Shown here piece by piece: positions 1,807 to 15,346 of a stretch of 64,000 bases of DNA (its first letter is position 1; every line of letters starts with the position of its first letter). This DNA is from Flavobacteriales bacterium (GTDB taxonomy: Bacteria; Bacteroidota; Bacteroidia; Flavobacteriales_F; PHOS-HE28). The notes beneath the pieces are model-generated. The model had not been told where the DNA came from. It saw only the letters and a program-made list of their open reading frames with translations, and made no database searches. The DNA is taken from contig JADJCX010000018.1 of assembly GCA_016703005.1 (NCBI GenBank), forward strand, positions 3,794 through 67,793, written 5' to 3'. Position numbers and translations under genes: made by a program.

Positions 1807-2533
1807 GGTGCACGGGTTGGTTGGTTTTCTTCTACCAAGGCAACGAGAACCAAGCCACCTTATTCGGGAAGTTCAGATAGCTACCGTCCCACTCACTTGC
1901 ACGTGACTGGACCCTGATCAGCGCACGTACTAACGGGGTAGATAGACCCCAAACCGGGATGTTGCGAGCCATGCCTTTGCCTTGCAAGGATCAACGGCTT
2001 TGGTCGCGTCGGCGCGCCAATGGATGGCCTTACGTTTGGCGCACCATGTCCCTTAACCGCGTTGAACGAGTGCGTCGCAGCTTTGCGATGGGACTTATTG
2101 CGTTGGTTGCGTGGAGCGCGTTGATGCCTGTGCTGTATCGCATGGATTGCCTGAGCAGCGGCCGGAGCGTTACGTCTTGGTTCACACCGGTCAACTGTCC
2201 TGGCACCGATGTCCCTGCCGGTGACCGCCCCTGTATCACGCCGAATTGCTGCGTGTTCATGAGCGCTTCGGTGGATCAACTGCTCTTCAATCCGGATAAA
2301 ACCGTGCCCGTTCCGTCGGTGCCGGAATTGGCGTGGACCCCTGCCGTTTGTGTTGTTCCGGCGCTCGGCCCGTTGCCCACCACTGGGCACTTCGTTGATC
2401 GAGGGCCGCCTAAGGCGCGATCGACCGACCTCGTTTTTATTGGAAGCCTGAGGATCTGAGATCCCCAGTAGAGTGCGCCCGATGCTTCCCGGCATCGGGC
2501 TGTGTCGTTTTCCAATAAACCCCGGTTGTTGTC

Positions 2534-3262
2534 ATGTCAAAGGATCCCGAATTCGGTTTGAACAATTTGCCCGGTACCGCTCGATGGGTGATGTCGCCAT
2601 GGGTGAGCTATATGAACAAGTTGCTCGCCAAGCTCCGTTCGCCCGTCGATATCAAGAAACGCTTCAACCACCGCGAGGATATGGTGAGCTTGGAGCAGAT
2701 CGGGAACTTCGAATTGCTCATTACCGATCTGATCGATCGCGATGTACAGGGCGACTTCGTGGAATTGGGTTGTTACAGCGGCAGCACCTCAGCGGTCTTC
2801 GGAAGTCTTCTGCATCGGCTGGCGCCTGAGCGCAGGTTCTTGGTGTACGATCGGTTCGATATGGAGTTGGGCAGTACCAGAAACATCCGTAGCCAGTTCG
2901 AGCAGCGCATGAAGGATTGCGGGCTGCCGATGCCGATCGTGCACGAGGGCGACCTCTTTGCGCTGCTGCCCGCACAGCTCCCCGCATCCATTGCGTTCGC
3001 GCACATCGATCTCGGGACCGGGGGCGGGGTATACCAGCATGCCGAGTTGCTTGTACATTCACTGAAGCACGTTTATCCGCGCCTGTCAAGCGGTGCAATA
3101 CTGATCCTTATGGACTACCATGTTCCCGATGTTACGATCCACGGCAACGATTCCAATCCTGCGGTACGCCTCGTGGCCGATACATTCTTCGAAGACAAGC
3201 CGGAGAAGATGCGCGTGCTCTATGGTGGTCCATGTTCCCATGCCTATATCCGAAAAAATTGA
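2534..3262 (+). CDS. class I SAM-dependent O-methyltransferase, macrocin-O-methyltransferase (TylF)-like
   Basis: 242-aa ORF. FVELGCYSGSTS glycine-rich SAM-binding motif. N-terminal region typical of the TylF family. Confidence 0.55.
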   Translation: MSKDPEFGLNNLPGTARWVMSPWVSYMNKLLAKLRSPVDIKKRFNHREDMVSLEQIGNFELLITDLIDRDVQGDFVELGCYSGSTSAVFGSLLHRLAPERRFLVYDRFDMELGSTRNIRSQFEQRMKDCGLPMPIVHEGDLFALLPAQLPASIAFAHIDLGTGGGVYQHAELLVHSLKHVYPRLSSGAILILMDYHVPDVTIHGNDSNPAVRLVADTFFEDKPEKMRVLYGGPCSHAYIRKN

Positions 3263-3268
3263 ACCATT

Positions 3269-4984
3269 ATGACCCGTGCCTCAGTTTGTACATCGCTCAT
3301 CATCGGGTGCATTTGGGCCCAAGCGCAGACGCCGCTCCCCATTCCCGATACGTTAACCGGTCCATTGATCCAACTGGCGCTGCAAGAAGGCACGCAGGAG
3401 TTCCATCCCGGCGAGGTGGTGGCCACGTACGGCTATAATGGCGATCTGCTCGGCCCCACCTTGATCCTCCAGCAGGGCGAACCCATCACTTTGAACGTCA
3501 CCAATACGCTGCCCGACCTGACCACCACGCATTGGCATGGCCTGCATGTGAGCCCCGCGAACGACGGTGGGCCGCATTCGGTGATCCTGCCCAACACAAC
3601 ATGGTCGCCATCGTTCACGGTGATGGATCGCGCTTCAACATTCTGGTACCACCCGCACGGCCATGGCCTTACCGACTACCAGGTGAGTTTAGGTGCCGCC
3701 GGTATGATCATCGTTCGCGATGCGCAGGAGGCGGCCCTCGACTTGCCCAGGACATACGGGGTCGATGACATACCGTTGATCCTTCAAACGAAGGCGATCG
3801 TTAGCGGCCAAGTCGCGTTGCACACCGGCTTGGACAGCGTAGTGCTGGCCAATGGTGTGCGCAATGCGTGGAAGGAATTGCCCGCCCAAGTGGTGCGCTT
3901 GCGCTGCTTGAACGGTTCCAGTGAGCGCACCTTCTTGTTGGGTTTCAGTAACGCACTTCAGTTCCATGTCATTGGCACGGATGGTGGGTTGCTGGCTGCA
4001 CCTGTCACCTTGAACCGCCTACAGTTGATGCCCGGGGAACGGGCTGAACTGCTTGTGGACCTTGGAGGGCAGCAAGGACAGTCGTTCCAGTTGATGAGTT
4101 ACGGGAGCGAGTTGCCCGACGACATCATTGGCGCCGCGCAGGTCGGCAACGGTATGGCAACGCTCGATGGATATGACCTGAACGCACTGAACGGTGCGGA
4201 CTTCGCACTGGTCACCTTCGCCGTTGGAGCGCCCACTGGTGATGGCACACTCGTTGTGCCCACAGCACTCGTGCCCACCAATGCATTCAACACGGCCGAT
4301 GTGGATGTAACGCGTCCGTTCAACATTGAACCGGAAAGCATGGGGGCCATGCAAATGATCGAAGGCCCTTTCGAGATCAATGGCGCGCTGATGGACATGG
4401 ATGTGATCAACGAAGTTGTGCAATTGGGCAGCACCGAGATCTGGGAGTTCATCAATAACACAATGGTGGGCCACCCGATCCACATCCACGACATCCAGTT
4501 CAATATCCTCGATCGCAACGGCTTGCCGCCGGAGCCTTGGGAAAGCGGGTGGAAGGATGTGGTCTTCGTGCCTGCCATGGGCAGCGCGCGTGTGATCACG
4601 CGCTTCGATGATTTCGCCGATCCGGATATGCCGTACATGTACCACTGCCATCTGCTCATGCACGAGGACGAGGGTATGATGGGGCAATTCCTCGTGATCG
4701 ATCCCAATGCCGTTGGCGAACTGATGACCGATCAGGTCGGCTTGACCGTTTGGCCGCAACCGTACGCCGATGGCCCGCTTCGACTGCAAGCCGAAGGGCT
4801 CGAGGGCCGGTGCACGGTTGCGCTGGCTGATGCCTTGGGTCGCACGGTGCTTTTGGAACAAACCGTTTTCAGTGATGGTCGCGGTTCCATCGTGTTGCCG
4901 GTGGTCGCCCCGGGGCACTATGTCCTGCGCATCACCGCCCGCGGCCACGTGCCGCTGGCAACCACGCTGATCGTCCAACCTTGA
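3269..4984 (+). CDS. multicopper oxidase (laccase/CueO-like) with T9SS C-terminal sorting domain
   Basis: 571-aa ORF. Signal peptide. Copper-ligand motifs HWHGLHV, HPHGH, HIHDIQF and HCHLLMHEDEGMM. The last roughly 80 aa (PLRLQAEG ... GHYVLRITARG ... LIVQP) look like a T9SS CTD. Confidence 0.85.
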   Translation: MTRASVCTSLIIGCIWAQAQTPLPIPDTLTGPLIQLALQEGTQEFHPGEVVATYGYNGDLLGPTLILQQGEPITLNVTNTLPDLTTTHWHGLHVSPANDGGPHSVILPNTTWSPSFTVMDRASTFWYHPHGHGLTDYQVSLGAAGMIIVRDAQEAALDLPRTYGVDDIPLILQTKAIVSGQVALHTGLDSVVLANGVRNAWKELPAQVVRLRCLNGSSERTFLLGFSNALQFHVIGTDGGLLAAPVTLNRLQLMPGERAELLVDLGGQQGQSFQLMSYGSELPDDIIGAAQVGNGMATLDGYDLNALNGADFALVTFAVGAPTGDGTLVVPTALVPTNAFNTADVDVTRPFNIEPESMGAMQMIEGPFEINGALMDMDVINEVVQLGSTEIWEFINNTMVGHPIHIHDIQFNILDRNGLPPEPWESGWKDVVFVPAMGSARVITRFDDFADPDMPYMYHCHLLMHEDEGMMGQFLVIDPNAVGELMTDQVGLTVWPQPYADGPLRLQAEGLEGRCTVALADALGRTVLLEQTVFSDGRGSIVLPVVAPGHYVLRITARGHVPLATTLIVQP

Positions 4985-5054
4985 ACCACGGACACAAGAT
5001 TTTCGATACTGCCTTTCACTTCACATCACAACTGGAAACCAAAACAACGTTCAC

Positions 5055-5795
5055 ATGAAAAAGCTCTTCTCCGTTATTCTCGCATCTGCGTGCCTTGCTT
5101 CGGCAACCGCGCAAACCACTGCACTGGATTTCACCGCCAACGATTGCGATGGCGTGAGCCATAACCTCTTTACCGAACTCGAGGCCGGTGATGTGGTGAT
5201 CATCGAACTGGTAATGATGGGCTGCCAACCCTGCGTTACCGCCGGCAATAGTCTCAAGAACAATGTGCTGCCCAACGTGAGTGACCCAAGCCGTGTGAAG
5301 CTGTACAGCATTGGCTTCACCAACGGTATCAATTGCACCCAGATGAACGACTGGAAGAACACCAACGGGTTCACGCACACCGTGTTCGCAGGCATGAGCG
5401 CACAAACAACGCACTACGGTGGTATGGGCATGCCGACCATCGCGGTGGTAGGTGGTGCGGCGCACGATGTGTTCTACAGCGAACAAGGTCATAGCGACAG
5501 TGATAACCCCGATATCCTCGCCGCCATAGAAGCAGCGCTCGTTGCGGGTGTTGGCATCAATGAGGTGAACTCAACGGATGTGGTCATTCACCCGAACCCT
5601 GTTGTCGATATCCTCAACTTCGATAAGGCCGATTGGACCAACGCCCGCATCCTCGACCTGCAAGGTCGTGAAGTGATGAATGTGCAACTCGTGGCAGGCA
5701 AGCTGGACGTGTCGCTGCTACAACCCGGCATGTTCGTGCTGCAATTGACCAATGCAACGGGTGCGCTGGGTACTACGCGCTTCGAGAAGAAGTGA
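5055..5795 (+). CDS. thioredoxin-fold (TlpA/ResA-like, CQPC motif) protein with T9SS C-terminal sorting domain
   Basis: 246-aa ORF. Signal peptide MKKLFSVILASACLASATAQ. A CxxC motif (MMGCQPCV) plus a downstream cis-Pro-like GMPTIAVVGG. C-terminus VVIHPNPVVDILNF ... GMFVLQLTNATG is CTD-like. Confidence 0.55.
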   Translation: MKKLFSVILASACLASATAQTTALDFTANDCDGVSHNLFTELEAGDVVIIELVMMGCQPCVTAGNSLKNNVLPNVSDPSRVKLYSIGFTNGINCTQMNDWKNTNGFTHTVFAGMSAQTTHYGGMGMPTIAVVGGAAHDVFYSEQGHSDSDNPDILAAIEAALVAGVGINEVNSTDVVIHPNPVVDILNFDKADWTNARILDLQGREVMNVQLVAGKLDVSLLQPGMFVLQLTNATGALGTTRFEKK

Positions 5796-5882
5796 TCAGG
5801 AGTGATGGTCGGAGCAGGCGGAGAGCCTGCTCCGATGTTGCACCTTCATGGAGACAGTAACACTGCTGAACCGCAACACAAC

Positions 5883-7319
5883 ATGAAGTTTTACGCCGTT
5901 GGTATGCTCGCACTGCTCGCCGCGGTGCAAGGCACTGCACAAACAACCGCCGTCTCATGGACAGCCCCGCTCGATTGCAATGCCGCTGGTGAGGGTGCGC
6001 TAAGGCCGCGCATTGCCATCAATGGCGATGGCAACCCCGTGGTGTTGTGGGGCGACTATTCACCCAACAGCAATCATGTTGCGGTGGGCAACGGTGCCGC
6101 TTTTCTTTCCCCGGTGGAGGTGAGTGCGCCCGGTTGCGTGCCTGCGGTGGCCGACTGGATGGGCAGCAGTATTGCTGCCGCGGGCAACACAGTGTGGGTG
6201 GTGATGAAAGGCACTCCCGAGGAAAGCAAACCCGTTTATGTGCGGCGCTCGGACGACGGTGGCTACACGTGGGGTGACACACTGCGGGTGGAGCCGTATG
6301 ACGGGCTTGTCTCGCGCTTCCCCTCTATTGCGCTCGATGACCCTGATGCCCCATTGGTGCAGTACATGCAGTTCGACAGCGGCTACTTCGGTGCCCGCCA
6401 AGTGGTATCACATATGATGGGAGGCGGCTTCATGTCTCCTGTGCAGGTGAGCACCCCGTTCGCACCCGGCGATGTATGCGATTGCTGTCCCAACCAAGTG
6501 GTGGTGCAAGGCAGCAACGTGGTCGCTCTGTACCGCAACGCCGGTCCGAATATCCGGGTCATGTGGGGCGCATCGTCCGGTGATGGCGGCGCCACATTCC
6601 CGGTTGGAACCGAGATCGATACTACAGGGTGGCCGCTGAACTCTTGCCCGAGCAGTGGCCCCGATGGCTACCTCGATGGCGACTCCTTGCGCTATGTGTG
6701 GATGAGCGGTGCGAACAACGGCACGAAGGTGTACGTCGGTAATGCTCTTGCGTCTGACCTATCGCTGGGTGCTCAGTGGAACGTGCACCCCGGCCAGATG
6801 CAGATGTTGCAACAGAACTTCCCAAGGATAGCAGGAAGCGGTGATACGCTTGGAATAGTATGGCAGCAGAGCATGGGTGGACAGCACGAGATACTCTTCA
6901 GTTGGAGCGTTACCGGTCCCATTGGGCTGAGCGCACCGGATACGGTGAACCTTGATGCCACGGGTGCCCAGAAGACGCCTGACATCGCATATGCTGACGG
7001 AGCCTTCCACATTGTTTGGAGCGAACTGGCTACGGGTCAGGTGCGCTACAGAAAGGCAACACTTACCAACGATGTTGGCGTGCAAGCATTCACTCCGGAG
7101 GCCATGCGCATTTTCCCGGATCCGGTCAGCGACCACTTGTTCATTGAAGGCATCATAGTAGGCTTGGCAGAGGTTGTCGACCTGCACGGTCGTGTGCATC
7201 TCTCGGTTGCTCTTAGTGCTTCGCAACTGGATGTTCGTGCGCTTGCGCCAGCGCCGTATCTGCTGCGTATTACCGATGCGAACGGCCAACAACGGACAGC
7301 GCGTTTCACGAAGAGGTGA
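5883..7319 (+). CDS. BNR/Asp-box repeat (sialidase-like beta-propeller) protein with T9SS C-terminal sorting domain
   Basis: Signal peptide MKFYAVGMLALLAAVQGTAQ at 5883 (the ORF opens at 5802). Asp-box motifs SDDGGYTW and SSGDGGATF. C-terminal PDPVSDHLFIEG ... PYLLRITDANG is CTD-like. Confidence 0.6.
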   Translation: MKFYAVGMLALLAAVQGTAQTTAVSWTAPLDCNAAGEGALRPRIAINGDGNPVVLWGDYSPNSNHVAVGNGAAFLSPVEVSAPGCVPAVADWMGSSIAAAGNTVWVVMKGTPEESKPVYVRRSDDGGYTWGDTLRVEPYDGLVSRFPSIALDDPDAPLVQYMQFDSGYFGARQVVSHMMGGGFMSPVQVSTPFAPGDVCDCCPNQVVVQGSNVVALYRNAGPNIRVMWGASSGDGGATFPVGTEIDTTGWPLNSCPSSGPDGYLDGDSLRYVWMSGANNGTKVYVGNALASDLSLGAQWNVHPGQMQMLQQNFPRIAGSGDTLGIVWQQSMGGQHEILFSWSVTGPIGLSAPDTVNLDATGAQKTPDIAYADGAFHIVWSELATGQVRYRKATLTNDVGVQAFTPEAMRIFPDPVSDHLFIEGIIVGLAEVVDLHGRVHLSVALSASQLDVRALAPAPYLLRITDANGQQRTARFTKR

Positions 7320-7328
7320 GTGCGGTGC

Positions 7329-7904
7329 ATGGGTCCCTTACTTACCATCCGCAACATGGTCTGCGACCGGTGCAAGTCGGCCGTGGCGCGTGTGTTCGAT
7401 GGGCAGCACTTGCCGGTGAAGCGCATCGAACTCGGAGAGGTGGAACTGCTCCGCGAACCTTTGACCGACGAGCTGGATGCCTTACGCGGCGCGTTGCGGG
7501 TGGAAGGCTTCGAACTGGTGGATGATCGCGACGCCGTGACCATCGCCCGCATCAAGGCGGCGATCGTGAAGCTGGTGCACCACGATGGCGATATGCAGGG
7601 CCGGGTGAAACTGGGCGATCATCTCAGTGCGTTACTGCACAAGGAATACTCTGGTCTCACAGCGCTCTTCACGCAGGTGGAAGGCATCACCATCGAGCAG
7701 TTCTTCCTCTTGCAGCGCCTTGAGCGCGTGAAGGAGCTGATCAAGTACGATGAGCTCACACTGAGCGAGATCGCGGACCGCACGGGCTTCAGCAGTGTTG
7801 CCCACTTGAGCGCACAGTTCAAGAAGCTCACCGGCATGACGCCGACCGCTTTCAAGCAACTAGGCTTGGCGCGTACCCCATTGGACAGGGTGGGCCCGAT
7901 GTAA
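7329..7904 (+). CDS. AraC-family transcriptional regulator with N-terminal HMA-like (MxCxxC) metal-binding domain, a candidate copper-responsive regulator
   Basis: N-terminus LLTIRNMVCDRCKSAVARVF is a canonical HMA motif. C-terminus ITIEQFFLLQRLERVKELI ... LSEIADRTGFSSVAHLSAQFKKLTGMTPTAFK is an AraC-type HTH. It lies immediately upstream of the copZ-like and copA genes. Confidence 0.7.
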   Translation: MGPLLTIRNMVCDRCKSAVARVFDGQHLPVKRIELGEVELLREPLTDELDALRGALRVEGFELVDDRDAVTIARIKAAIVKLVHHDGDMQGRVKLGDHLSALLHKEYSGLTALFTQVEGITIEQFFLLQRLERVKELIKYDELTLSEIADRTGFSSVAHLSAQFKKLTGMTPTAFKQLGLARTPLDRVGPM

Positions 7905-7976
7905 ACTCTTCCGGTCAGGATGTAACGCCTACGGTCCTTTGTCGCCGGTGCTTTGTACCGTCAAGAACGAACGACC

Positions 7977-8405
7977 ATGGACAACACGAACATCACCCTT
8001 CCGCTGCTCGACGTGAACAGCCCGCATTGCGCGCTGCGCGTTGAGAAAGCCATCCGCACGGTACCCGCTATCGCCGGCGCCGAAGTGGACCTGAACGCAC
8101 ATATGGCCCACCTGACCAGCACCGCACCGGCTACCGCAGTGCGCGAGGCGGTGGCCGCCATACGCAAAGCAGGCTACAACGTGGCCACCGAAGCGCACCG
8201 CTTCACCACCACCGGTGTCACCTGCGCCGGTTGCGCGAAAAGCGTGGGCACCATCCTGAACAAGCTGCCCGGCGTGATAAGTGCGCGCGTGGACCATGTG
8301 GAGAAGACGGCCGAGATCGAAGTGGTGAAGGGCACGTTATCGATCGATGATCTGCTGAACGCCCTCAAACCCGCTGGCTACGGCCTTATCGCACAAGCCG
8401 CATAA
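7977..8405 (+). CDS. tandem HMA-domain protein (CopZ-like copper chaperone with two domains)
   Basis: Domain 1 carries a degenerate motif, DVNSPHCALRVEKAI. Domain 2 is canonical, GVTCAGCAKSV. Each domain is about 65 aa. Confidence 0.7.
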   Translation: MDNTNITLPLLDVNSPHCALRVEKAIRTVPAIAGAEVDLNAHMAHLTSTAPATAVREAVAAIRKAGYNVATEAHRFTTTGVTCAGCAKSVGTILNKLPGVISARVDHVEKTAEIEVVKGTLSIDDLLNALKPAGYGLIAQAA

Positions 8406-8411
8406 ACACCA

Positions 8412-10848
8412 ATGGCCATGACTGCCGAGACAAGCACTCTGGTGCTGCCCGTGGAGAACATGGACAGCGAGCACTGCGCGCTGATCGTGGACAAGGCCCT
8501 GGCCACCGTTCCATCGGTGACCGCCCACCATGTGGAGCTGGACAACCGCAGCGCGGTGATCGAGAGCACCACGCCCGTGGAGGCCGTGCGCGATGTGGTG
8601 AAGGCCATCCGCGACAACGGGTACGATGTACCCACCCTGAGGCGCACTTTTCCCGTGACCGGCATGACCTGCGCGAGCTGCGTGAGCAGCGTGGAGAGCA
8701 TGCTGCTTGCCCAGCCCGGTGTGATGAACGCCGCCGTGAACCTGGCCACCAACACCGTGCAGGTGGAGTATGTACCCGGTGTGATCGATGAACGCCGCAT
8801 GCGCGCGGTGGTGCAGAGCATCGGCTACGACCTGCTCATCAGCGAAGAGCGCGAGGCGACCGCCGACCTGGAGGCGATCCAGCGCGCACGCATGACCTCG
8901 CTGAAGCAACGCCTGTGGGCCTCCATCGCACTGAGCACACCGCTGGTGGTCATCGGCATGTTCGTCATGCACGAGCCGTGGGCCAACTTCGTGATGTGGG
9001 CCTTGAGCACACCGGTGGTGCTCGTCTTCGGCCGCTCCTTCTTCATCAACGCATGGAAGCAGGCGAAACACCGCAGCGCCAACATGGACACGCTGGTCGC
9101 CCTGAGCACGGGCGTGGCCTATGTTTTCAGCGTCTTCAACACCACCTACCCTTCGTTCTGGACCAGCCGCGGGCTGATGCCCCACGTCTACTTCGAGGCG
9201 GCGGCGGTGGTCATCACCTTCATCCTGCTCGGCAAGTTCCTGGAGGAACGCGCCAAGGCCGGGACCAGCAGCGCCATCAAGAAACTGATGGGCCTGCGCC
9301 CCAGCACCGTGCTGCGCGAAGGGAGCAACGGTCAGACCAGTGAAGTGCCCATCGCCGATGTCAACGTGGACGACATCCTGGTGGTGCGTCCGGGCGAGAG
9401 CATAGCGGTGGACGGGGAGGTGATCGGCGGCGAGAGCTACGTGGACGAAAGCATGCTCAGCGGTGAGCCGGTGCCCGTGGCGAAGCTCGTGGGCGCGCAG
9501 GTGCTGGCCGGCACCATCAACCAGAAGGGCAGCTTGCGCATGAAGGCCCGCAAGGTCGGTGCCGCCACATTGCTGGCGCAGATCGTGCGCACCGTGCAGG
9601 ACGCACAGGGCAGCAAGGCGCCCGTGCAGAAGCTCGTGGACAAGATCGCGGGCGTCTTCGTGCCCATCGTCATCGGCATCGCGCTTCTCAGCGCCATCGT
9701 GTGGTGGGTCTTCGGAGGCGAGCATGCGTTCACCCAAGGACTGTTGGCCATGGTCACCGTGCTGGTGATCGCCTGCCCGTGCGCACTGGGTCTTGCCACG
9801 CCCACCGCCATCATGGCCGGCATGGGCAAGGGCGCCGAGAACGGGATCCTCATCAAGGACGCCGAAAGCCTGGAGCGCGCACGCAAGATCACCGCCATCG
9901 TGCTGGACAAGACCGGCACCATCACCGAAGGCAAGCCGGATGTGGTGGAGGCCGTAGGCCTCGACGACCAGGAAGCCGCCGCAGCGCTGCTCGCCATCGA
10001 GTCCCGATCGGAGCATCCCCTTGGCGGAAGCGGTGACACGCCACCTGCACACCATCGGCATTCATCAAGCACCAGAGGTAACCGGCTTCGAAAGCCTCAC
10101 CGGCAAGGGCGTGAAAGCCACGGTGAACGGAACCATCTGGTACGTCGGCAACGAGCGCTTGCTCGAAGAGAACGGCATCGTTGTCGAGGGTGCCTACCGC
10201 GAACGGGAGCGGACCTGGCAGGAAGCCGCGCACACCGTGATCTGGTTCGCCGATGCGAAAGAAGTGCGTGCCGCCGTGGCCATCGCAGACCGCATCAAGC
10301 CCAGCGCGATTCAGGCCATCGCCCGGCTGAAAGAGGCCGGTGTGAAGGTCTTCATGCAGACCGGCGATTCGCGGCGCACCGCTCAGGCGGTGGCAAAGGC
10401 AGTGGGCATCGATGACTTCCGCAGCGAAGTGCTGCCCTCAGACAAGGCCGCTTTCGTTACCGCCCTGCAGCAACAAGGCCATGTGGTGGCCATGGTGGGC
10501 GACGGCATCAACGACAGCGAAGCGCTCGCCAAGGCGGACGTGAGCATCGCCATGGGCCAAGGCAGCGACATCGCCATGGACGTGGCGCGCATGACACTCA
10601 TCAGTACCGACCTCAACGCCATCCCACGCGCGATCACGCTCTCGCGCAAGACCGTCAACCTCATCCGCCAGAACCTCTTCTGGGCATTCATCTACAATGT
10701 GTTGGGCATCCCGATCGCGGCCGGTATCCTGTATCCCATCAACGGCTTCCTGCTGAACCCCATGATCGCCGGTGCGGCCATGGCCTTCAGCAGCGTGAGC
10801 GTGGTGAGCAACAGCCTGCGCCTCCGTTGGGCCCGGCTCGACAATTGA
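8412..10848 (+). CDS. copA: copper-translocating P1B-type ATPase (CopA), interrupted by a single-base frameshift near 10017 to 10020 (C4 run)
   Basis: Two N-terminal HMA domains (first degenerate SEHCAL, second [12 protein letters not shown]). CPC motif [20 protein letters not shown] phosphorylation site. The first ORF breaks after SEHPL. The continuation AEAVTRHL ... [11 protein letters not shown] ... resumes in the +1 frame from 10021. An intact gene would have ccc where cccc is seen. Confidence 0.85.
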
Positions 10849-10874
10849 CCGAACGACCTATACCTCCAACGATC

Positions 10875-11768
10875 ATGAAAACCCTCCTCTCCCTCATCGC
10901 GCTACCAGCGCTGCTGTTCTTCAGCAGTTGCAGCGCGCAGATCAAGAACGCGCAGAGCACCATCGTGCGCATCACCGGTAATTGCGGCATGTGCGAGAAG
11001 ACCATCGAGAAGGTCGCCTACGTGAAGGGCGAAGCGGAAGCTGATTGGGATGTGGACGCCAAGACCGCGCGCATCACCTTCGACAGCACACGCACCAGCA
11101 TGGATGCCGTGCTGCAACGCATCGCCTACGCGGGTTATGACAGCGAACGCTACCTCGCTCCCGATGCCGCCTATGCCGCGCTGCCCGGTTGCTGCCAATA
11201 CGTGCGCACGTTCAAGAAGGCGCCGTTGACCACGACTCCGGTCGAACATGCCGGGCATGAAGGCATGGGCACGGACCATGCGCAACATGGCAGCACTTCC
11301 CCCGATACGCTTGCGGCGCAAGTACCGGCGAACCCAAAGTCCGATCAGTTCAATGGTCTCTTCACCGCCTATTTCGCTCTGAAGGACGCGCTCGTGGCTT
11401 CGGATGCGAAGAAGGCTGCGGCCCATGCTTCCGAATTGTCCGCTGCCGTGAAGGCCGTGAAGATGGAACGCATGGGACCCGAGCTACATGGTGTTTGGAT
11501 GCAAGTGATGGAGCCGCTCGCGAACATCAGCGCGGGCATCGCTTCGAAGACGGATATCGAGGCGCAGCGCAAGGCCTTCGCCGAACTTTCAGCACCCATC
11601 CTCGCGCTGGTGAAGGTCGCGCCGCGCCCGGAGCCGGTCTATTACGACCACTGCCCCATGTACGAGGGCGGCGCGGACTGGCTGAGCCAGGAGAAAGGCA
11701 TCAAGAACCCGTTCTATGGTTCGATGATGCTCACCTGTGGCAGCTTGAAGGAGACCATCACGAAGTAA
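10875..11768 (+). CDS. lipoprotein with N-terminal HMA-like domain and DUF3347-like C-terminal region ending in a CPM metal motif
   Basis: Signal and lipobox MKTLLSLIALPALLFFSSC. HMA-like ITGNCGMCEKTIEK. C-terminus YYDHCPMYEGGADWLSQ ... MLTCGS. Copper context. Confidence 0.55.
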   Translation: MKTLLSLIALPALLFFSSCSAQIKNAQSTIVRITGNCGMCEKTIEKVAYVKGEAEADWDVDAKTARITFDSTRTSMDAVLQRIAYAGYDSERYLAPDAAYAALPGCCQYVRTFKKAPLTTTPVEHAGHEGMGTDHAQHGSTSPDTLAAQVPANPKSDQFNGLFTAYFALKDALVASDAKKAAAHASELSAAVKAVKMERMGPELHGVWMQVMEPLANISAGIASKTDIEAQRKAFAELSAPILALVKVAPRPEPVYYDHCPMYEGGADWLSQEKGIKNPFYGSMMLTCGSLKETITK

Positions 11769-11786
11769 TGCCCGCGATCACGCCCC

Positions 11787-14089
11787 ATGGACCTGCTTCG
11801 CTTCCTCCGCATCGCGATCCAGTTGATCGCCCTGTTGATCTTCCTGCTGAGCGGAGACTTGGCCACTGCGCAGGACGGATATGGTACACGCGCATTGGGC
11901 ACCTCGGTGCCGAGCGGCGACTTCACTCCGCGCACTAACCGCTATGACCTCACCATCCGGGATACCATCGTCAACTACACGGGCAAGGCGCGCAAGGCCT
12001 TCACGGTGAACGGGCAGATGCCCATGCCCACCCTCACCTTCACCGAAGGCGATACGGCAGAGATCGTGGTGCACAACGCCATGGAAAAGGAGGAGACCTC
12101 CTTGCACTGGCACGGCATCATCCTGCCGTATCAGCTGGACGGCGTACCCTACCTGACCACGGCCCCTATAAAGGCCGGTGAAACACAGGTGTACAAGTTC
12201 CCCCTTTTGCAGAGCGGCACCTACTGGTACCACTCGCACACCAAGTTGCAAGAGCAGAACGGCATGCACGGCGCGCTCATCATCCACAAGCGGAATGTGG
12301 AGCCCATGCCCGAGCAAGTGCTTATCCTGAGCGAGTGGACGGACATGAAGCCCTTCGAGGTGCACCGCCGCCTGCACAGCGCGAACGATTGGAGCGCCAT
12401 CAAAAGCACCGGATCCGGCCGGGCACCGTGCAGAGCTACAGCGATGCCATCAAGGACGGTGCGCTCGGCGTGAAGCTCACCAACGAGTGGAAGCGCATGA
12501 ACGCCATGGACGTGAGCGATGTCTACTACGACCTCCTTTTCGCCAACGGCAAACCCGTGGACGAAGCGCCGCGGTTCAAGGCCGGTGAGCGTGTGCGCGT
12601 GCGGCTGATCAACGGCGGGGCGAGCAGCTACTTCTGGATCACTTATGCCGGTGGGAAGATGACCGTGGTGGCCAGCGACGGCATCGATGTGGAACCGGTG
12701 GAGGTCGACCGCTTCATCATGGGCATCGCCGAGACCTACGACATCATCGTGACCATACCGGCGGACAGCACGGCCTATGAACTGGTGGCCACCAGCGAGG
12801 ATCGGGTACGCTCCACCTCCCTGTGGCTCGGCAGCGGCATCCGGCAGCTCGCCGCACCGCTCCAGCCGCTGAAGTACTTCGCCGGTATGGAGATGATGAA
12901 CGACATGATGAAGATGAACGGCGACCTCGATGACATGGGCATGAACATGAGCCTCCAGCAGATGGACATGAACGTGGTGATGTACCCGAGATCACCGGCG
13001 CGAAAGCGACACCCGTTGAAGGTGCAGGACATTCCCATGGTGGTGACGAATACAACAGCAATGCGCTGTCCAACATCGTCACGCTCAACTACGCCATGTT
13101 GCGTTCACCCACCAGCACCGCGCTGCCGCCCGGGCCCGTAAAGGAGATGCGCTTCGAGCTCACCGGCAACATGAACCGCTACCTCTGGGCCATCGACAAC
13201 AAGACCGTTTCGGAGACGGACCGCATCCTGATCCGCAAGGGCGAGAACGTGCGCATCATCCTCTACAACAACAGCATGATGCGGCACCCGATGCACCTGC
13301 ACGGCCACTTCTTCCGGGTGGTGAACGGTCAGGGAGACCACTCGCCGCTGAAGAACGTGCTCGACATCATGCCCATGGAGACGGACACCATCGAGTTCGC
13401 CGCCACCGAAACGGGCGACTGGTTCTTCCACTGCCACATCCTCTACCACATGATGAGCGGCATGGGCCGTGTGTTCACTTACGAAGGGACCGGCGCCGAA
13501 CCCGCAACTGCCCGATGTGAAGAAAGCCGCGCGCCTGTTCTCCCGCGACGACAAGGAATGGCACTTCATGGTACAGAACGACTTCGCCACGAACGGCAAC
13601 GACGGCGAGGCCATGTACATGAACAAGCGCTGGAACCTGCAGAGCGAATGGCGCTTGGGCTACATGGAGGAACACGGCCAGGAAGTGGAGACCCACTTCG
13701 GTCGCTACTTCGGCAAGATGCAATGGCTGTTCGTGAACGTGGGCCTGGACTGGCGCACACGCGAAGGACACGGCGGCAACGATCCGGAGGATAACCTCTT
13801 CGGGCAGACCAATACCAAGAACAGCCGGAGCGTGGGGCATATCGGATTCCAGTACACCCTGCCGATGCTCCTGGTCCTTGACGTGCGCATCGACACCGAT
13901 GGCCAACTGCGGTCACAACTGATGCGTGAGGACATCCCGCTAACGCCCCGGATGCGGATGGACCTGATGTACAACACCGATCTGGAGTACATGGCCGGCC
14001 TGCGCTATGTGCTGGACAAGACGTGGGCGATAAGGGCGCACTACGATAGTGACATGGGCTTGGGCGTGGGCATGACGATGAGCTACTGA
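11787..14089 (+). CDS. multicopper oxidase (CopA/PcoA-like) fused to a CopB-like C-terminal region; reading frame broken 3 times (about 12425, 12988, 13503)
   Basis: Four consecutive overlapping ORFs are collinear with a single roughly 765-aa protein. Cupredoxin motifs HWHGIILP, WYHSHT, HPMHLHGH, HCHILYHMMSGM. The final roughly 200 aa (EWHFMVQNDFATNG ... GLDWRTREG ... YDSDMGLGVGM) resemble the outer-membrane CopB family. The breaks sit at CCGGAG read as CCGAG, at a C run, and in a GC-rich run. Confidence 0.75.
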
Positions 14090-14134
14090 GGTCTGTCCGT
14101 TTGAGGGTGCATTCCATTGCGCGATCTTGGCGGC

Positions 14135-15346
14135 ATGAAACACATCTTGCTCTTCATGGTGATCATGGCGGTCGGGTCAACATCCGCCCAGAACCCGGTC
14201 ATACAGATCGTCCTTGACGCAGTGAGCACCGACAGTTTGGTCAGCTATGTCAGTCAACTCAGCGGCGAAACGACCGTGGATGTGGGCAACGGACCCGAGA
14301 TGATCGTAAGCCGCCACAAGTTGAACGCTGGTAATGCTGTTGCCCAAGCATGGCTGCAGCAGAAGCTCACCGAATTCGGTTATGCGCCGACAACGCAATC
14401 GTTCAGCGCAACCGGGTTCAATGTGCTTGCCGAAAAAACCGGTGCGCTCCATCCCGATAGCAGGGTGATCATTTGCGGCCACTACGATGCCATGCCCGGC
14501 GGCATAGCCGCTGCACCGGCTGCCGATGACGATGGCAGCGGAACGTGTAGTGTGCTTGAAGCTGCACGGATCCTTGCACCGTACACCTTCGAACACACCA
14601 TCGTATTCGCTCTATGGGATGAGGAGGAACAAGGGAAGATCGGCAGCCTCTTCTACGCTGGGGTTTCCGCCGCCAACGACGATACGATCCATGCCGTGGT
14701 GAATATGGATGCCATTGCTTATGATGGCAACGGCGACGGACTTGCACGCATCCACACGCGACCGGTCGCGAACAGCCTTGCCATCAAGGACACGGCGCTT
14801 GCGGTCAATACTGATTACGGCCTCAACATCAACTTGGCCATCAATAACCCGGGCGCCACGTATAGCGATCACGCCAGTTTCTGGACCGAAGGTTACGGCG
14901 CCATCCTTGTCATCGAGGATTTCGATAACGACGGCAACCCGCACTATCACACACCGACCGACCTGCTGCAGTACCTCACCCAAAGCATGTGGAGCGACCT
15001 CACCAAGTTGAGCATCGGTACGGTGGCCACCCTTGCCATACCGTACAACAACAACTTGGCCTTAGTTGAAAGAGCTGCACCTACCGCCCAGCTCTTCGCT
15101 TTTCCTGTGCCGTCGGAAGGAGATGCGCGTGTTTGGGTGGAGAGCCGCACCGCAGGAAGGGCGAGGTTGGAATTGGTTGACGCTATGGGTCGCACCATGT
15201 ACCTATTGCACGAAGGCCCGCTCGCACAGGGCAAGCAGGCCTTCGACGTACCGTTGGGCGATCTGGCGCCCGGGAGCTATCGCGCCGTTCTCACCTCTTC
15301 GGACGGAACCAAGAGTTCCGTTGCACTGGTGCGCACGGCGCAGTGA
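14135..15346 (+). CDS. M28-family zinc aminopeptidase with T9SS C-terminal sorting domain
   Basis: Signal peptide MKHILLFMVIMAVGSTSAQ. HYDAMPGG ... DDDGSGTCSVLEAARIL and DHASF motifs. C-terminal roughly 90 aa is CTD-like (LFAFPVPSEG ... GSYRAVL). Confidence 0.7.
   Translation: MKHILLFMVIMAVGSTSAQNPVIQIVLDAVSTDSLVSYVSQLSGETTVDVGNGPEMIVSRHKLNAGNAVAQAWLQQKLTEFGYAPTTQSFSATGFNVLAEKTGALHPDSRVIICGHYDAMPGGIAAAPAADDDGSGTCSVLEAARILAPYTFEHTIVFALWDEEEQGKIGSLFYAGVSAANDDTIHAVVNMDAIAYDGNGDGLARIHTRPVANSLAIKDTALAVNTDYGLNINLAINNPGATYSDHASFWTEGYGAILVIEDFDNDGNPHYHTPTDLLQYLTQSMWSDLTKLSIGTVATLAIPYNNNLALVERAAPTAQLFAFPVPSEGDARVWVESRTAGRARLELVDAMGRTMYLLHEGPLAQGKQAFDVPLGDLAPGSYRAVLTSSDGTKSSVALVRTAQ

Follow-up and report, generated by a model that had tools for sequence, protein, structure and literature searches.

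A predicted copper-responsive AraC-type regulator with a divergent HMA domain upstream of copZ and copA in a Flavobacteriales bacterium

The regulator gene and its two domains

In the 64,000-nucleotide stretch of Flavobacteriales bacterium DNA analysed here (the window; contig JADJCX010000018.1 of assembly GCA_016703005.1), a gene within a cluster of copper genes encodes a 191-residue protein that joins an N-terminal domain related to the heavy-metal-associated (HMA) domains of copper chaperones and pumps to a C-terminal AraC/XylS DNA-binding domain. An earlier note had placed an AraC-type regulator at 7329-7904 (+) with copZ-like and copA genes directly downstream, and both statements are borne out, the first by the starts of homologues and a match to the Pfam family HTH_18, and the second by Pfam assignments to same-strand genes at 7977-8405 and 8412-10848. 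The architecture, relatives and operator described below suggest that the protein is probably a cytoplasmic copper sensor of the Bacteroidota, uncharacterised so far. Its parts are as follows.

7329..7904, + strand: regulator gene, 191 residues, HMA-like N-terminal domain and AraC/XylS C-terminal domain (open reading frame, homologue starts, Pfam, AlphaFold2)
7329..7532, + strand: divergent HMA domain, residues 1-68, the putative sensor (AlphaFold2, Foldseek, profile matches, hhalign)
7353-7373, + strand: predicted metal loop N9-M-V-C12-D-R-C15, residues 9-15 (C12 at 7362-7364, C15 at 7371-7373)
7533..7871, + strand: AraC/XylS bipartite helix-turn-helix (HTH) DNA-binding domain, residues 69-181, seven helices (Pfam, PDB sequence matches, AlphaFold2)

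The list of open reading frames (ORFs) enters this gene as 7320-7904 (+) with a GTG start. All of 22 homologues (69-96% identity) align from the methionine of MGPLL..., and we therefore take the ATG at 7329 as the start rather than the GTG at 7320. The gene begins 10 bp past the stop codon of the gene upstream (5802-7319), and its reading frame is intact in the window.

The C-terminal half is a bona fide member of the AraC/XylS family. Pfam assigns HTH_18 to residues 101-177 (E = 1.3e-16, 61.1 bits against a cutoff of 33.6 bits) together with HTH_AraC (6.4e-9, 36.2 bits against 26.6), AraC-type DNA-binding domains are the sole matches in a single-sequence search of PDB sequences, and the full-length AlphaFold2 model (predicted local distance difference test score, pLDDT, 80.8) contains the seven-helix AraC domain at residues 69-181. 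The NCBIfam matches are to unrelated AraC equivalogs, cover just their HTH part and score well short of the cutoffs, and no MerR/CueR, CsoR or CopY domain is found in the protein with Pfam or NCBIfam at E<=0.1. DNA binding and transcriptional control are predicted from a conserved tandem repeat at a fixed distance from a promoter box. Two further readings of the architecture were considered and ruled out: a periplasmic sensor or signal-peptide protein, since the sequence has no such feature, and an Ada-like Zn(Cys)4 protein, since the regulator has two cysteines only and an HMA fold.

Profile, fold and motif tests identify residues 1-68 as a genuine but divergent HMA domain. A profile built from 20 close N-terminal domains matches CopZ (6ff2, 2e-4), a metal-binding domain (MBD) of CopA (3fry, 3.5e-3) and Bacillus subtilis CopZ (7e-3), the alignments to CopZ and CopA running from end to end with the CxxC in register. 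When a diverse profile of 49 domains (34-75% identity) was searched against PDB sequences, the top matches were Cu(I) domains, namely ATP7B (2e-11), ATP7B MBD5-6 (5.5e-7), the B. subtilis CopA MBDs (3.7e-6) and CopZ (6e-6), and nearly all of the 45 matches were HMA proteins, again with the CxxC in register. Alignment with hhalign to the five HMA domains encoded in the window gives a probability of 88% and an E-value of 3e-6. The AlphaFold2 model computed from the N-domain alignment (pLDDT 85.6) has the order beta(4-8)-alpha(13-25)-beta(30-34)-beta(37-40)-alpha(46-58)-beta(62-64), so that C12 is placed where the beta1-alpha1 loop ends and C15 in the first turn of the helix that follows, which is the classical HMA metal site. 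Foldseek searches of the PDB with this model recover TTHA1718, Atx1, HAH1, CsoZ, CopZ, MerP, GolB and HMA7 with probabilities of 0.97-1.0 and template modelling (TM) scores of 0.56-0.67. Their E-values are modest at 5e-3 to 7e-2, which is to be expected of a ferredoxin-like domain of 70 residues, and the lower ranks also contain ACT and UreE domains.

C12 and C15 are the sole cysteines of the regulator, and both lie within the NMVCDRC motif. When residues 1-95 were compared by phmmer with 1.84 billion cluster representatives, 756 clusters at 50% identity were matched at E<=1e-3, nearly all of them AraC fusions of ~185-195 residues or fragments of these. The pattern x-M-V-C-x-R-C is present in 128 of the 150 best clusters, the remainder being mostly truncated at the N-terminus, and in 50 diverse full-length members (34-83% identity) M10, R14 and C15 are invariant and C12 is kept in 49. 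This near-complete conservation argues that the motif is not fortuitous, a possibility that the earlier note had raised. Besides two HTH models, HMA is the only Pfam family that recurs among the 50 members. We predict from these features that the N-terminal domain binds Cu(I) or another soft metal.

Relatives of the regulator and the predicted operator

The family of HMA-AraC proteins is very large, 7,986 of the 8,000 candidates scored in a profile search of a 5.8-billion-protein collection falling at E<=1e-10. Its members come from the classes Flavobacteriia, Sphingobacteriia, Bacteroidia, Cytophagia and Ignavibacteria, with Dysgonomonas, Prevotella, Sphingobacterium, Taibaiella, Epilithonimonas, Polluticoccus, Marivirga and Mangrovibacterium among the named sources, and from gut, soil, water, and plasmid- or integrative and conjugative element (ICE)-borne contexts. 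The database names of scored members are AraC or helix-turn-helix only, and none carries a precomputed HMA domain. Several genomes contain two paralogues of the regulator. In a conjugative element of Sphingobacterium spiritivorum, for example, the first paralogue precedes a P1B ATPase and a second (L081:9336-9941), a few kb away, is a protein of 201 residues with the loop G-M-C-C-E-R-C, followed by a DUF8199 protein; this pair may reflect a diversified ligand or target.

Gene context was compared in 80 loci (cited by L numbers) kept from a scan of GTDB species genomes that yielded 402 relatives; the 80 loci are from Flavobacteriales and other Bacteroidota metagenome-assembled genomes (MAGs) and two Ignavibacteria. 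Because this set is biased towards the close Flavobacteriales clade, five distant members and a tblastn search of plasmids were added to compensate. Of the 80 loci, 37 have copZ, copA or both downstream of the regulator on its strand and no more than 400 bp away, and 60 have at least one copper gene within 6 kb. All five of the distant members that could be read (Sphingobacterium, Dysgonomonas, Epilithonimonas, 'Prevotella sp. 10(H)' and Mangrovibacterium; 45-50% identity) lie 85-340 bp upstream of an HMA-P1B ATPase, usually with a small HMA protein next, and the Sphingobacterium locus is inside a conjugative element. Among 72,556 plasmids the regulator is found in 34 records, all from Bacteroidota (Hymenobacter, Runella, Spirosoma, Adhaeribacter and others), and in three plasmid loci that we inspected it stands beside a multicopper oxidase and an RND pump, a P1B ATPase and a cupredoxin, and a 'bilirubin oxidase', respectively. 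The order of regulator followed by P1B ATPase, CopZ or multicopper oxidase is conserved from Flavobacteriales MAGs to the five distant members and to Runella, Hymenobacter and Spirosoma. The gene order on the Runella plasmid is regulator, multicopper oxidase, 'sialidase family protein' and RND pump.

Aligning the spacers between the regulator and copZ in 38 loci revealed a conserved element in which a direct repeat is followed at a rigid distance by a promoter-like box; this operator/promoter is a new observation of the present analysis.

7898..7925, + strand: predicted operator, direct repeat GATGTAA-N14-GATGTAA with a 21-bp period (conserved; the one exact match in the window)
7948..7955, + strand: predicted Bacteroidota-type -7 box (GTGCTTTG), with TTTG at 7952-7955 (consensus-based)

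Repeat 1 overlaps the TAA stop codon of the regulator (7902-7904), and the ATG at 7977 of the CopZ-like gene, the first gene of the predicted target operon, is kept in the intergenic alignment. A strict form of the repeat, AT[GA]TAA-N14-16-AT[GA]TAA, gives 35 sites in 34 of the 80 loci as compared with ~0.15 in shuffled loci, all of them on the regulator's strand just past its stop codon, and the 21-bp period is constant wherever both repeats are recognisable. The conserved box GTGCTTTGTA at 7948-7957 contains the TTTG, which in 38 loci, including two of Dysgonomonas type at 45% protein identity, starts exactly 31 bp after the TGTAA of repeat 2. A composite pattern (repeat 1 at a minimum of 4 of 6 positions, repeat 2, N26 and TTTG) finds 50 sites in 47 of the 80 loci, all on the regulator's strand, and none in 20 shuffles. 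The Sphingobacterium and Epilithonimonas half-sites, (T/C)ACAA(A/T), occupy the same offsets by eye, these variants falling outside the scoring of the spacing pattern.

Promoters of Bacteroidetes follow the consensus TAnnTTTG at -7 and TTG at -33, some 19-21 bp upstream, and by comparison with it the TTTG box is likely to be the -7 element. If so, repeat 2 would occupy or abut the -33 position. No -33 TTG is present in the window at the expected distance from the -7-like box, and for this reason the promoter appears to depend on an activator. That the spacing is exact to the base pair in different genera argues in turn for a contact between protein and polymerase rather than simple occlusion. 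A sigma-70 promoter and terminator scan found 3 promoter-like sites against 4.0 expected, the sigma-70 model being uninformative for Bacteroidota sequence.

A search of the window for a second operator gave none. The target supported in the window is accordingly limited to the copZ-copA unit, probably with the HMA/DUF3347 and multicopper oxidase genes that follow, because 7898-7925 is the only operator there. The suggestion that the protein is a one-component Cu(I) sensor for the island therefore stands, as a prediction from its HMA domain, synteny and operator, for this unit and not for the whole copper island. Of the two intergenic intervals that the earlier note had put forward for binding assays, 7905-7976 is entered by the predicted operator from 7898, and 8406-8411, at 6 bp, is too short for a site. 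The GATGTAA heptamer itself occurs 11 times in the window (e.g. at 4304, 46596, 51675 and 61196) against 3.2 expected, a number reached in 0 of 100 shuffles. Only the heptamers at 7898 and 7919 form a tandem pair, the nine others having no partner repeat in the expected register.

The element is also found ahead of other genes. It precedes a copA that lies away from the regulator in L031, L036, L037, L040, L042 and L063, and in some other loci the composite operator precedes a multicopper oxidase. In nine loci with no cop gene after the regulator, the composite element is ~50 bp upstream of a cysteine-rich ORF of 43-47 residues and 9-12 cysteines. One such sequence is MKIPMKPVDQTNASCGNANCTCTICMCGPICPSTECGCGCAAK, and the cysteines keep the pattern C-x4-C-x-C-x2-C-x-C-x3-C-x4-C-x-C-x-C. 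None of these metallothionein-like ORFs lies in the window.

L002, 6648-6779: metallothionein-like ORF
L005, 4744-4872: metallothionein-like ORF
L005, 7998-8126: metallothionein-like ORF
L012, 6660-6788: metallothionein-like ORF
L016, 2388-2516: metallothionein-like ORF
L019, 6659-6787: metallothionein-like ORF
L021, 6647-6778: metallothionein-like ORF
L023, 6645-6785: metallothionein-like ORF
L038, 6642-6746: metallothionein-like ORF
L045, 6645-6776: metallothionein-like ORF

Three loci have MacB/FtsX permeases downstream of the ORF, and two have a multicopper oxidase there. The peptide matches no Pfam family and has no homologue in the protein collection, and the ORF may be uncalled and undescribed; a target of this kind fits a regulon for thiophilic metals.

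Proposed mechanism and alternatives

We think it rather probable, on the strength of comparative sequence evidence, that the regulator, as an AraC-type protein, activates copZ-copA in response to Cu(I). The architecture, the HMA homology and fold, the conservation of the CxxC, the synteny with copper genes and the operator geometry are all observed features that support this proposal. From them we infer that the ligand is Cu(I), that the regulator activates and does not repress, and how it is switched. Two protomers would occupy the direct repeat at 7898-7925 in a tandem geometry of 21 bp, with the promoter-proximal repeat abutting the place where a -33 element would be expected and lying 31 bp from the TTTG of the -7-like box. 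Cu(I) would load the CxxC directly or by ligand exchange from the CopZ-like chaperone, a speculative route that is suggested by the resemblance of the sensor to a pump metal-binding domain. The loaded regulator would then activate copZ-copA, and probably also the downstream HMA/DUF3347 and multicopper oxidase genes. The switch could be a Cu(I)-bridged dimerisation of HMA domains that leads to cooperative occupancy of both repeats, and dimer structures of CopZ and ATOX1 (2qif and 1fee) are among the Foldseek matches to the N-terminal domain; it could also be the relief of an inhibitory contact between the HMA and HTH domains. A wider picture, in which AraC-scaffold metalloregulators across the phylum read chaperone-bound Cu(I) by HMA-HMA exchange, act as bridged dimers and have the 43-residue peptides in their regulon, is offered tentatively, since it is less likely than not to hold in all of its parts.

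Several observations weigh against the proposal of a copper-responsive activator. The Pfam HMA model (PF00403, gathering score 24.8 bits) does not match the regulator even at E<=0.1, and in the 50 diverse family members it gives sub-threshold matches in 21 (best E 1.6e-4) and reaches the gathering score in none. The loop is N-M-V-C-x-R-C rather than G-M-T-C-x-x-C, its invariant arginine is unusual, and similarity to HMA sequences leaves the metal specificity unfixed. No metal gene occurs within 6 kb in 20 of the 80 loci, where the neighbours include MacB/FtsX permeases, restriction-modification enzymes and helicases; the composite site is not present in 33 of the 80; the -7 box is assigned by consensus only; and copA and the downstream oxidase are frameshifted in the window. 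The HMA domain is thus divergent and not 'canonical', as it had been called, and the domain scan proposed in the earlier note returned HTH_18/AraC but no HMA, an outcome named there as counting against the idea. We do not accept the absent match as a refutation, since the profile, fold and family-level evidence point the opposite way.

The same parts could make a repressor, with the apo-protein on the repeat blocking RNA polymerase and Cu(I) releasing it, as in the logic of CopY and CsoR. Known copper sensors besides CueR are mostly de-repressors, and the position of repeat 2 at the would-be -33 element is compatible with occlusion. The lack of a -33 TTG at the proper distance nonetheless makes the promoter look dependent on an activator, and a 31-bp distance fixed to the base pair across distant genera is expected of a contact between activator and polymerase but unneeded for occlusion. 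AraC/XylS proteins on tandem 21-bp repeats beside the -35 element are, moreover, typically activators, and we regard repression as unlikely. The N-terminal domain might instead sense another thiophilic metal (Ag, Zn, Cd or Hg) or thiol oxidation, with the copper genes forming part of a broader regulon. HMA domains bind several metals, and ZntA, MerP and GolB are among the matches; some genomes have two paralogues, and some regulators stand beside MacB/FtsX permeases or carry the variant GMCCERC (L081); and a metallothionein-like target would suit Zn or Cd too. The controlled genes are, however, copper-specific in the window and in most loci (P1B-1 pump signature, CopZ, multicopper oxidases) and the top profile matches are Cu(I) domains, so that a ligand other than copper seems quite unlikely.

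It has finally to be asked whether the N-terminal domain is just a structural or dimerisation module whose CxxC is a relic, in an AraC regulator that is constitutive or otherwise controlled. Such a relic would be in keeping with the missing Pfam HMA match, but M10, C12, R14 and C15 are invariant or nearly so even in members of 34% identity, in a domain that is variable elsewhere, and the fold puts the cysteine pair exactly in the HMA metal loop; we consider this very improbable. Activation of copZ-copA in response to Cu(I) is the explanation that we prefer.

Among known systems CueR appears to be functionally the closest. This MerR-family sensor of Escherichia coli and other Proteobacteria is likewise a cytoplasmic one-component protein, activates copA and the gene of a multicopper oxidase, and binds Cu(I) through two cysteines, Cu(I) being the predicted ligand in our case. 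Its fold, a MerR winged helix with a coiled coil, is unrelated and shares no domain with the regulator, and it acts by DNA distortion at a palindrome between -35 and -10, whereas the regulator has tandem direct repeats upstream of and abutting the -33 position. In Enterococcus hirae, an HMA-type domain likewise passes a copper signal to the controller of copZ/copA-type genes, but there the HMA chaperone CopZ is separate and the repressor CopY is a winged-helix protein whose Zn/Cu site has the form CxCxxxxCxC; in the regulator the HMA-like domain is covalently fused to the AraC DNA-binding domain. AraC itself has the same C-terminal bipartite HTH and tandem direct-repeat half-sites, its I1-I2 half-sites having a 21-bp period with the proximal one overlapping -35, and differs in having a cupin domain for sugar binding and dimerisation in place of the HMA domain. 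Ada also carries an N-terminal cysteine-metal domain ahead of an AraC-type HTH, but this is a Zn(Cys)4 methyl acceptor with no HMA fold. The HMA chaperones and pump domains (CopZ, Atx1/ATOX1, CopA/ATP7B) have the same fold and an M-x-C-x-x-C in the beta1-alpha1 loop; they are free or attached to a pump, whereas the HMA domain of the regulator falls below the Pfam threshold, is fused to a DNA-binding domain and has the invariant arginine. Another AraC-family protein, YbtA, has been tied to the copper response via Cu-yersiniabactin (PMC8725597), but it senses a metal-siderophore complex by a different N-terminal domain, has no HMA domain or CxxC, and does not regulate copA.

What is new here is the combination, in a one-component metalloregulator, of an AraC scaffold and an HMA sensor. 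Reviews of bacterial metal sensing list MerR, CsoR, CopY, ArsR, Fur and related families, and 'AraC' is not mentioned in the review text covered here; a survey of marine bacteria that included few genomes reported only two-component and extracytoplasmic function (ECF) copper systems in the Bacteroidota. In open-access papers and preprints we found no description of an HMA-AraC regulator, although an earlier description elsewhere is possible. If this is indeed the cytoplasmic copper sensor of the Bacteroidota, the copper and silver resistance islands of the phylum could be properly annotated, these bacteria would gain a small Cu biosensor part whose operator/promoter is defined within 58 bp, and one more way of linking an HMA domain with transcription would have been recognised.

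The copper gene cluster in the window

The regulator belongs to a tightly packed, co-directional cluster at ~2534-15346, with housekeeping genes beyond ~15.3 kb. It opens with genes for a methyltransferase, a multicopper oxidase and two proteins with type IX secretion system (T9SS) sorting tails. The regulator comes next, then a CopZ-like protein that carries two HMA domains, CopA and an HMA/DUF3347 protein, and after these another multicopper oxidase and an M28 peptidase.

7977..8405, + strand: CopZ-like protein with two HMA domains, the first SPHC and the second CAGC (Pfam HMA 9.3e-22, NCBIfam CopZ 1.8e-20)
8412..10848, + strand: CopA, P1B-1-type Cu(I) ATPase (E1-E2_ATPase 6.5e-53, two HMA domains, NCBIfam)
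10875..11768, + strand: exported HMA and DUF3347 protein (Pfam DUF3347 1.4e-21, HMA 6e-4, synteny in >25 loci)
11787..14089, + strand: multicopper oxidase in several frames (Cu-oxidase_3, Cu-oxidase and Cu-oxidase_2 on three ORF fragments)

CopA contains the motifs CPC, DKTGT, NX6YNX4P and MX2SSX5N; CPC with NX6YNX4P and MX2SSX5N is what we take to be the P1B-1 (Cu+/Ag+) signature of Arguello's classification. In the first HMA domain of both the CopZ-like protein (SPHC, residue 15) and CopA (SEHC, residue 19), S-x-H-C replaces C-x-x-C, and the second HMA domain of each has a normal CxxC. The HMA/DUF3347 protein has a weak HMA match with a G-N-C-G-M-C loop and is encoded between copA and a multicopper oxidase in >25 loci; its gene is probably in the same operon as copZ-copA.

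The frameshifts in copA and the oxidase are best seen by comparison with L001 (CADECG010000044.1), whose regulator is 96% identical to that of the window at the protein level. Relative to the intact L001 gene (812 residues), copA has one additional C in a C-run near 10017, which breaks its frame, and the oxidase differs from that of L001 by indels of 1-3 nt at 12404, 12988, 13005 and 13493. At least some of these indels fall in short homopolymer runs. Assembly errors are the more likely cause, and pseudogenisation could be another.

Upstream of the regulator, at 3269-7319, are genes for a 571-residue multicopper oxidase, a 246-residue CQPC (thioredoxin-like) T9SS-tail protein and a 505-residue protein with a weak match to a T9SS tail. 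This trio accompanies the regulator in many loci, among them L001, L003, L004, L027 and L028, and in L011 in another order. We looked for a second paralogue of the regulator in the 64-kb window and found none, and Rfam gave no match over 7000-8600. The similarity to L001 is itself mosaic, with 99.8% identity over 2001-5802 and 96.2% over 6334-13872, which suggests that recombination has occurred within the copper cluster.

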